Shown piece after piece: positions 4,826 through 5,857 of a stretch of DNA of 64,000 nt. Source of the DNA: a virus; the IMG/VR virus record IMGVR_UViG_2706795545_000001; one strand, written 5' to 3'. The position numbers and the translations under genes are program-made. Within the stretch, counting starts at the first letter, position 1. Every line of letters begins with the position of its first letter. Under the pieces are notes generated by a model that did not search any database, was not told the DNA's origin, and saw only the letters and a program-made list of their open reading frames with translations.

Positions 4826-5857
4826 ATGAGTGAGGTAGACCTCGTACATTTAAAAGACCTAGTGGAGTTCAGGGACGACATAATAAAGTTAAGAGTAGCG
4901 TTAGGAAACAGGATAGGTGCTAAAAAAGAGAACAATAAGTGGGTATTCCTAAGGAGATATTCAGTATGCAACAACCATCATATGATATTACTCAAGGAAG
5001 ACGAAAAACGCGATAAGTGTCCCCTCTGCGGTCAGCCCGTCAAAATTATTGAAGAAACACCATCTAATGACCTCATAGAGAGGTTTATGGATCTGCTCAG
5101 ACAACAAGAGATAGTTGAAGGGCTTATTGGTAACGCTGTTACGAAATTCCCAGAATTTACTAATTTCTTGGCGTTTATTCGAGGAATAGGATCTGCTAAC
5201 GCTGGAAGACTTCTCGTTTATGCATACCCACCAAAGTTTCAGTACAGCATCAATAAATTCAGGAAGTACGCTGGTTTAGCCGTGATGTTCCAGTGTCCTA
5301 AATGCGGATATTATTATTACGCTGGTGAGTCCTCAAATGGTAAACCTGCCCTTCCATCAAAAGACGGTTGGCTGTGTCCAAATGACGGTACGAAACTTAT
5401 TGGTACGTCAGCGAAGAACGTCAAGTACAATAGGACTGTTAAGACATTTTTACTAGGAATTCTGGCTAATAACCTCATACTGGCAGGCGGTGTTTATGCA
5501 AAGATAATAAAATCATTTAAAGAAGAAATAGCATCTAAGCACCCAGACTGGAATAAGCTAAGAGTACAGAGGACTGCGATTAGGAAAGCAATATCCTTAT
5601 TGATATCACAATACTTTGCTATCTCTTTACATTACCGCGAAGGAGTACCATTACCTGAGGCTTACAAAGTAGTGTTGGGGAAAGAATACGAAATCCTCAG
5701 AAAGCACGAAGATTTCATTGAATCGCCAATTACAGACTATTACGTTGACACGAAGACTGTAAAATATAAAGCTAAGTTTGAAAAGATATTGGAAGAATTA
5801 GGTATAAACAGAGAGGAGGTGACAACATGGCTGAAGAAGAAAAAGATTATTAAGTAA
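4826..5857 (+). CDS. TIGR-associated (Tas, TasA-like) protein: IS110/Nop-like RNA-binding core with two Zn-ribbon insertions, no RuvC/HNH recognised
   Basis: Coiled-coil helix LKDLVEFRDDIIKLRVALGNRI, FIRGIGSANAGRLL, KF..SINKFRKYAGL, KYNRTVK, RTAIRKAISLL match the IS110 C-terminal/Nop fold. CNNHH..CPLC and CPKC..CPND Zn ribbons. Abuts the dual-spacer array. Confidence 0.8.
   Translation: MSEVDLVHLKDLVEFRDDIIKLRVALGNRIGAKKENNKWVFLRRYSVCNNHHMILLKEDEKRDKCPLCGQPVKIIEETPSNDLIERFMDLLRQQEIVEGLIGNAVTKFPEFTNFLAFIRGIGSANAGRLLVYAYPPKFQYSINKFRKYAGLAVMFQCPKCGYYYYAGESSNGKPALPSKDGWLCPNDGTKLIGTSAKNVKYNRTVKTFLLGILANNLILAGGVYAKIIKSFKEEIASKHPDWNKLRVQRTAIRKAISLLISQYFAISLHYREGVPLPEAYKVVLGKEYEILRKHEDFIESPITDYYVDTKTVKYKAKFEKILEELGINREEVTTWLKKKKIIK

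Follow-up and report, generated by a model that had tools for sequence, protein, structure and literature searches.

What can a Tas protein do that has no nuclease domain and whose gene is followed by a repeat array of its own? The question is raised by tasA (positions 4826-5857), a gene in a 64,000-nucleotide stretch of viral DNA (IMG/VR virus record IMGVR_UViG_2706795545_000001), the whole of which is referred to here as the window. The analysis described below indicates that tasA and the adjacent array probably form a self-contained TIGR-TasA module, carried by a large tailed-spindle virus of Sulfolobales; this module would carry out RNA-guided DNA binding without cutting. The parts of the module are as follows, numbered by their positions in the window.

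4826-5857, plus strand: tasA, encoding a 343-residue nuclease-less TIGR-associated Nop-domain protein (structural model, VIA, profiles, PHROG)
4832-4915, plus strand: coiled-coil helix 1, residues 3-30, with the G27-N28 motif, which relatives also conserve (DSSP on the model)
4916-5065, plus strand: predicted zinc ribbon 1, residues 31-80, inserted at the tip of the coiled coil (invariant ligands, profile alignment)
5066-5284, plus strand: second coiled-coil helix with the helix-hairpin-helix portion of the Nop C-terminal domain, residues 81-153 (aligns with TaTasR 141-213)
5285-5425, plus strand: predicted zinc ribbon 2, residues 154-200, forming an enlarged wedge loop (invariant ligands, profile alignment)
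5426-5743, plus strand: the remaining Nop C-terminal domain, residues 201-306, with the candidate pair Y280 (5663-5665) and H294 (5705-5707)
5744-5854, plus strand: C-terminal extension beyond the Nop core, residues 307-343 (helices 312-325 and 329-338, and a basic tail)
5859-6783, plus strand: dual-repeat TIGR array of 24 units, beginning 2 nt past the tasA stop codon

The AlphaFold (AF2) model of TasA, for which an alignment of 20 family members was the input, is confident (predicted local distance difference test, pLDDT, 90.6; predicted template modelling score, pTM, 0.84). Foldseek ranked TIGR-TasR (9mty) first, TasH second and IS621 third among the structures similar to this model, and re-alignment with VIA gave Z 17.4 for 9mty_B (TasR; 191 residues aligned, root-mean-square deviation 2.3), Z 15-16 for TasH and Z of about 12 for IS110 enzymes, including IS621, while all other structures had Z <= 7.7 and covered the long helices only. 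Two profiles were used in sequence comparisons, namely A1, comprising the window TasA family alone, and A7, comprising TasA and 81 distant relatives. The former matched 9mty with E 5.7e-5, and the latter matched TaTasR (9mty) with E 8.8e-60, SpTasH with E 3.2e-34 and IS621 with E 8.5e-6. An exhaustive profile search recovered 304 distant relatives of TasA, and in PHROG the protein matches phrog_33543 (E 8e-232). Because both the structural matches and the A1 and A7 profile matches lead to TasR and TasH, the membership of the window protein in the Tas family is secure. In Pfam, the whole protein matched zinc-finger and zinc-binding modules only, all under the curated cut-offs, with no match to Nop or Transposase_20; a phmmer search of PDB with the single TasA sequence returned weak zinc-finger matches and nothing useful, and hhalign of profile A1 against the lone SpTasH sequence was uninformative. 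A pattern-based scan of 185,579 species genomes, the sensitivity of which is limited, detected no Tas homologue.

The model opens with helix 3-30, which is aligned to TaTasR from residue 110-114 and to SpTasH from residue 63-69, and is thus positioned past the RuvC domain of TasR and past the HNH domain of TasH. The N-terminus cannot extend further, because an in-frame TGA (4817-4819) is located two codons 5' of the ATG; this start codon is preceded 6 nt upstream by the Shine-Dalgarno-like GGTGA. Since the protein begins at the coiled coil, after the point where the nuclease domains of TasR and TasH end, it belongs to the TasA subtype, which consists of the coiled coil and the Nop domain and has no nuclease domain. 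An original prediction made from the DNA letters alone had described a TasA-like effector with no N-terminal DEDD/RuvC domain, and this view is now backed by the fold, the profile matches and the protein's own dual-repeat array. In the alignment of 146 sequences, N28 falls on SpTasH N90 and is Asn in 118/145 relatives; residues 81-153 carry the motifs G120-x-G122 and Y148-A-G150-L, in which G120 is conserved in 145/145 relatives, G122 in 142/145 and G150 in 140/145.

A 1240-aa protein encoded in the window matches proteins of SMV1-4, STSV1/2 and ATV, which identifies the source as a large tailed-spindle virus of Sulfolobales. Viral-metagenome sequencing runs contain the stretch, and no RNA run was listed among them. 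Protein searches revealed 71 clusters homologous to TasA (60-99% identity), all of which originate from hot-spring metagenomes or from Sulfolobales or Thermofilum bins. Among named viruses, only Sulfolobales virus YNP1 (KP282679) has a homologue, a 78% identical 'hypothetical protein' (ALG97163) whose gene is followed by the same repeats as those of the window array.

Each unit of the array consists of the edge repeat TGCACAYAAGCAA, a 9-nt spacer A, the loop repeat TCAATAA and a 9-nt spacer B, resulting in a period of 38 nt (13 + 9 + 7 + 9), with two units of 39 nt. The array terminates at 6773-6783 with a 3'-truncated edge, TGCACACCTGC. This anatomy agrees with the published TIGR definition, in which repeats alternate, two 9-nt spacers are present and the last edge is 3'-truncated (Faure et al. 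2025, PMC12045711). No second array was found within the window, and the repeats have no match in Rfam at E up to 1. All 19 related loci contain the same edge and loop repeats 3' of tas and on the same strand, in arrays that range from 3 to about 50 units. The arrays of two distant zinc-ribbon relatives likewise follow tas, with a period of 36-37 nt and different repeats. The window array shows internal duplication, in that unit 14 repeats unit 4; units 7 and 18 have a common spacer B, and the last base is T in 17/24 of the A spacers and 13/24 of the B spacers. The minus-strand open reading frames (ORFs) of 34-86 aa at 5740-6903, with their recurring ...LVC...CLCA... peptides, are reading-frame artefacts of the array repeats. 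A plus-strand ORF with a listed start at TTG 6734 would overlap the array's end, and ATG 6812 is its more likely start.

A candidate for the processing of guides is found in the C-terminal part of TasA. SpTasH cleaves precursor guide RNA using Y289 and H296 (PMC13421893), and Xu et al. 2026 (bioRxiv 10.64898/2026.09.09.750476) regard such a Tyr/His pair as typical of dual-repeat systems. When the SpTasH sequence, taken from the Salicola phage record, is placed in the 146-sequence alignment, Y280 of TasA falls on Y289 and H294 on H296. The Tyr is retained in 129/145 relatives and the His in 64/145, and both are invariant within the family; as judged from this alignment, TasA retains the candidate guide-processing pair of SpTasH. 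Structural matches to Tas proteins stop near residue 305, and the extension beyond it (residues 307-343) has no Pfam match. The basic tail at its end, pointed out in the original prediction, is present as WLKKKKIIK and is conserved, with W335, K337 and K339 invariant.

The two inserts in the TasA core were positioned on the TaTasR segments defined by Xu et al. 2026 (tip R139-D141 and wedge G210-K230) using the A1 profile alignment, in which query residues 82-153 correspond to TaTasR 141-213 and query residues 201-268 to TaTasR 229-294. The second insert accordingly falls between TaTasR 213 and 229, within the wedge. In the first insert, none of C48, H52, C65 and C68 varies among 20 family members, and the likewise invariant E76-E77-x-P79 comes after them. 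In 29 sequences reaching down to 18% identity, the three cysteines are unchanged while the second ligand appears either as C-x3-H or as C-x2-C, and the H52 position therefore behaves as a metal ligand should. A CNNHH..CPLC insert between the coiled-coil helices had been predicted; the insert is indeed present, but H51 is not conserved and the motif is to be read as C-x3-H...C-x2-C. In the second insert (CPKC...CPND), the ligands C157, C160, C184 and D187 are invariant in the family, and residues 154-200 contain no Cys or His besides the three named cysteines. Relatives have CxxC...CxxC at the wedge, and one of them (P0073) has C-x2-D in the first knuckle (C-x2-D...CxxC). In LIM zinc fingers, Asp is known to act as the last ligand.

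In the model, both inserts are beta-hairpin modules with the ligands on beta strands, in two knuckles each, and the tip insert forms a beta-sheet in the models of both the whole protein and the isolated tip domain. With two knuckles, four ligands and beta hairpins, the inserts have the make-up of zinc ribbons and are predicted metal sites. At least three cysteines are present in the tip segment of 26 of the 146 aligned relatives, in the wedge segment of 31 and in both segments of 15, so the ribbons mark a wider clade. The best structural matches of the isolated tip domain are zinc modules of MCM, aRF1 and Nob1, together with rubredoxin, at Z <= 3.5. An HNH-like fold, which would have spoken against the original prediction, was absent from the 49 structural matches (Z >= 2) of the tip-domain model, the pLDDT of which is only 67, and Pfam searches with both inserts (E up to 10) returned zinc-binding modules only and no HNH family. 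As the confidence of the tip-domain model is modest, the missing HNH signal means absence of support for HNH and not its exclusion. An atlas-feature search with the wedge segment gave one weak lead, a cluster with Transposase_20 in 48% of its members (score 0.77).

The second insert follows YAGL(AV) directly, at residues 154-200, and was rightly predicted to occupy the catalytic-serine site of IS110 enzymes: in the A7 alignment, the IS621 segment AGLTPRRYESGSS, which contains the catalytic serine, aligns with the start of the wedge ribbon. The serine loop itself is absent, as also predicted, since no equivalent SG motif occurs in the family at that site. With no SG motif where AGLTPRRYESGSS aligns and no residues N-terminal to the coiled coil, identification of the protein as an IS110 transposase was rejected. 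It could still be imagined as a decayed remnant of such an enzyme, the repeats being structural (for example, a replication origin) and having no guide function. The protein and its relatives give weak signals for Transposase_20 and for 'transposase' PHROGs, which point in this direction, as does the lack of identified targets described below, but a remnant would hardly be kept with 60-99% identity across 71 clusters, some 80 invariant positions and the processing pair retained. Together with the constant repeats, the hypervariable spacers, an array that is always co-oriented with tas and the absence of both the DEDD domain and the serine loop, this makes decay from an IS110 transposase extremely improbable.

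The following ORF lies immediately upstream of tasA.

4682-4819, plus strand: 45-aa ORF upstream of tasA, in the same frame, with TGA and two codons between

This ORF had been proposed to encode a co-transcribed partner of TasA. It is a real gene, because its copy in the related locus L005 (within 2857-3000), separated from tas by TGA TGA, encodes an 82% identical protein and differs by synonymous third-position changes and an in-frame 3-nt indel. However, among the 20 loci compared it is present only in the window, L005, L009 and L010, and other contexts are found in viruses with 72-85% identical Tas; with four upstream contexts across the loci, it was rejected as a conserved partner. In YNP1-type viruses an unrelated ORF of 57-72 aa is located upstream and overlaps the tas start, in L012 and L013 a 307-aa P-loop protein (ATPase) is encoded upstream, and in L003 and L004 the upstream genes are divergently transcribed. 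It follows that tas and the array are the constant module and that this small ORF is no defining partner of it. The 45-aa protein has weak matches to Pfam SSV1_D-63 (E 0.003) and phrog_7928 (E 8e-5), and a weak resemblance links its residues 7-19 to the N-terminal extension found in a subgroup of TasA proteins of 377-382 aa (P0061-P0066; hhalign probability 27%, P 7e-4).

The ORF of 57-72 aa is located at 4781-4999 in L001, 3829-4008 in L002, 2835-3008 in L006 and 2790-3008 in L007, the overlap with tas being 8 nt; its stretch ...YYIxIPAKVAVFL... looks like an AbrB/SpoVT-type DNA-binding hairpin, and genes for a TFB homologue, an RHH protein and a Dam-like protein are found just upstream of it. 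L003, the most divergent tas locus, has a 3-unit array and is flanked (1-865 and 6639-7166) by genes for an AAA_15/AAA_21-type ATPase, identified from faint matches, and for a KwaA-domain protein; proteins of either kind occur in defence systems. In the window, the neighbouring genes, at 913-2490 and 9407-10288, include those for an AAA ATPase (Pfam AAA, E 2.5e-34) and for a ThyX thymidylate synthase (E 1e-66), and no ParB-like gene is located near tasA.

These contexts are relevant to an explanation in which TasA only finds the site, and the ribbons or the C-terminal extension recruit another viral or host factor. This could be a nuclease or integrase, a protein of segregation or part of the transcription machinery, and cleavage, recombination, partition or activation would result instead of a passive block. 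The two ribbons and the 37-residue extension are conserved surface additions lacking in TasR and TasH, different small genes abut tas in two virus groups, and the resemblance of the 45-aa ORF to the N-terminal extension of longer TasA proteins (hhalign P 7e-4), weak as it is, would fit a partner. Other TasA operons include ParB-like genes, and it has been suggested that integrases are helped (Faure et al. 2025). Nevertheless, the four upstream contexts leave no family-wide conserved neighbour, and no ParB or nuclease family was detected among the neighbouring ORFs scanned. In addition, the sites occupied by the ribbons contact guide RNA and DNA in solved Tas complexes, so a role in nucleic acid binding is the simpler one, and recruitment of an effector is considered unlikely.

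The 20 loci contain 173 distinct guides, and only two window guides recur in relatives, one in viruses with an 89% identical Tas and the other in L013; a few one- or two-base guide variants and hybrid units were also observed. The unit at 4198 of L015, for instance, combines spacer A of window unit 2 (5897) with spacer B of window unit 3 (5935). The hybrid units look like products of the deletion of one 38-nt period via recombination between loop repeats.

Targets were searched for as spacer A in the sense orientation with the reverse complement of spacer B, a layout deduced from the published 8-nt 3' overhang, and the opposite order was searched too. Within the window, the two arrangements with gaps of 0-2 nt yielded 27 sites at <= 3 mismatches, compared with 10-33 for shuffled spacers, and when any orientation and a distance of up to 40 nt were allowed, 30 pairs were found against a shuffle mean of 34, neither result exceeding chance. 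No site at <= 1 mismatch was found for the 173 guides in 246 kb of related viral loci, and the counts corresponded to the null expectation. An exact scan of IMG/VR with the guide common to the 89% relatives gave one match per arrangement, both attributable to chance because one contig carries bacterial-type proteins and the other belongs to a T4-like phage; the same guide had 16 matches in the 185,579 species genomes, none of them in Sulfolobales. A near-match of the last unit (6735) is located at 52768-52791, between an A/T-rich stretch and ATG 52820, and consists of the reverse complement of spacer A, a 6-nt gap and spacer B, with 1 mismatch in 18; about 0.3 such sites are expected by chance, and the order and the gap disagree with the published targeting rule.

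The absence of self-targets and the rapid turnover of guides together disfavour regulation of the virus's own genes and mildly favour a role in conflict with other elements or the host. Since the guides turn over fast and the virus itself is matched by none of them, the targets would more likely lie in rival mobile elements or in the host than among the viral genes.

The lack of DNA targets in these searches would also be consistent with recognition of RNA, the complex being a viral particle of box C/D-like type that uses its 9-nt spacers to bind or mark transcripts of the host or the virus. Box C/D particles of archaea, abundant in Sulfolobales, are built around a Nop domain (PMC12045711). 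Against such a function, TasA has no N-terminal fibrillarin-binding domain, the repeats contain no RUGAUGA or CUGA boxes and match nothing in Rfam, and no other solved structure is as near to the fold as TasR and TasH. TasR is active on DNA and not on RNA (PMC12045711). The targeting of transcripts appears improbable, though less so than a transposase remnant.

RNA-guided binding of DNA without cutting is thus the preferred explanation, and its steps may be envisaged as follows. The gene and the array would be expressed as one joint transcript, which a TasA dimer would cleave within the edge repeats via Y280 and H294, releasing RNAs of about 38 nt with two spacers of about 9 nt apiece. At a target, the wedge would hold the DNA strands apart, and the nuclease-less complex would remain bound as a roadblock, so that the target is silenced or blocked but neither cut nor recombined. 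The zinc ribbons would most simply serve as rigid substitutes for flexible loops, providing a stiffened and larger wedge and a tip module beside the guide-DNA duplex, and such rigidity would suit the holding of melted DNA at about 80 C. MbTasA is known to bind guides and DNA and to repress transcription without cutting (Xu et al. 2026), and by this analogy transcriptional repression by the window TasA is plausible. A more specific proposal, that the ribbons do more than stiffen and together with the C-terminal extension let the 343-residue particle clamp melted DNA at about 80 C, its changing guides silencing rival viruses or host genes, can be put forward only tentatively. If true, archaeal viruses would be using a heat-stable, RNA-guided silencing weapon against one another, and the zinc-ribbon TasA proteins would be a clade of their own.

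Several points weigh against non-cutting DNA binding as the function of the module. No target was identified for any guide in the searches of the window and related viruses, nor for the one shared guide in IMG/VR and the species genomes. H294 sits 8 residues further from the LG motif than its counterpart in SpTasH; the geometry may therefore differ, which makes the catalytic role of this residue uncertain. The repeats have boxes differing from the published UG...CCA, the edge being UG...GCAA and the loop UC...UAA, so that the two share the 5' U and the 3' AA and are otherwise not identical; the published TIGR description permits divergent boxes that co-vary. Metal binding and the role of the ribbons are deduced from sequence, and a partner may supply a nuclease in trans.

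TIGR-Tas systems were first described in 2025, and the window locus is a clean and complete viral TasA module. The relatives SMV1 and STSV2 can be grown in model Sulfolobus hosts, so its biology could be studied in a native-like setting. A motif-independent and probably heat-stable DNA binder of 343 residues could serve as a tool, and the near-total replacement of guides at 89% Tas identity bears on the question of how arrays acquire guides.

TIGR loci in archaeal viruses have been reported, the array of Acidianus tailed spindle virus (ATSV) being cited as an example (Faure et al. 2025), and in view of that study and of Xu et al. 2026 the family and its likely function are already known. The additions made here are the predicted zinc-ribbon tip and wedge, the C-terminal extension and the pattern of guide turnover in this virus group. 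Zinc is not mentioned in the TIGR-Tas papers searched (Faure et al. 2025; Xu et al. 2026), and the supplements of Faure et al. 2025 that were searched mention neither YNP1 nor Sulfolobales. The ATSV array (Hochstein et al. 2016, as cited by Faure et al. 2025) appears from that citation to be of the same type and from the same kind of virus; the Tas proteins are unannotated in the ATSV and YNP1 records, and zinc ribbons are unmentioned there.

Among more distant systems, archaeal Nop5 and the box C/D particle were rejected as an identity, given the missing N-terminal fibrillarin-binding domain, the repeats without RUGAUGA/CUGA and the lack of an Rfam match. IS621 (8wt6) shares the coiled coil, the RNA-binding fold and the AGL motif ahead of a variable loop with the window TasA, in which a predicted zinc ribbon supplants the serine-bearing loop AGLTPRRYESGSS. 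Unlike TasA, the IS110 bridge-RNA recombinases have the DEDD/RuvC domain, and they use one bridge RNA instead of an array of many short guides. TaTasR (9mty) and SpTasH (9w03, 9w04) resemble the window TasA in the coiled coil, the helix-hairpin-helix, the position of the wedge and the Tyr/His loop at the C-terminus, as well as in having dual-repeat arrays. They have, however, an N-terminal RuvC or HNH nuclease, cut DNA and lack zinc ribbons.

The closest counterparts are FpTasA (Faure et al. 2025) and MbTasA (Xu et al. 2026), which, like the window protein, are nuclease-less and consist of a solo coiled coil and Nop domain. The TasA systems are also alike in being virus-borne and in their adjacent co-oriented edge/loop array with two 9-nt spacers. 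In the window TasA, a predicted zinc ribbon of about 50 residues stands in place of the 3-residue tip and another of about 47 residues in place of the wedge of about 21 residues, and a 37-residue C-terminal extension with a basic tail is added. The window unit is 38 nt long, not 36 nt, the box sequences differ, and the host of the virus is a hyperthermophilic archaeon. Dual-repeat Tas proteins have been described as a compact Nop core with little variation (Xu et al. 2026). The ribbon-bearing TasA is therefore an exception to this statement, and dual-repeat Tas proteins are not uniformly compact, as they include a clade with predicted ribbons at the tip and at the strand-separating wedge.

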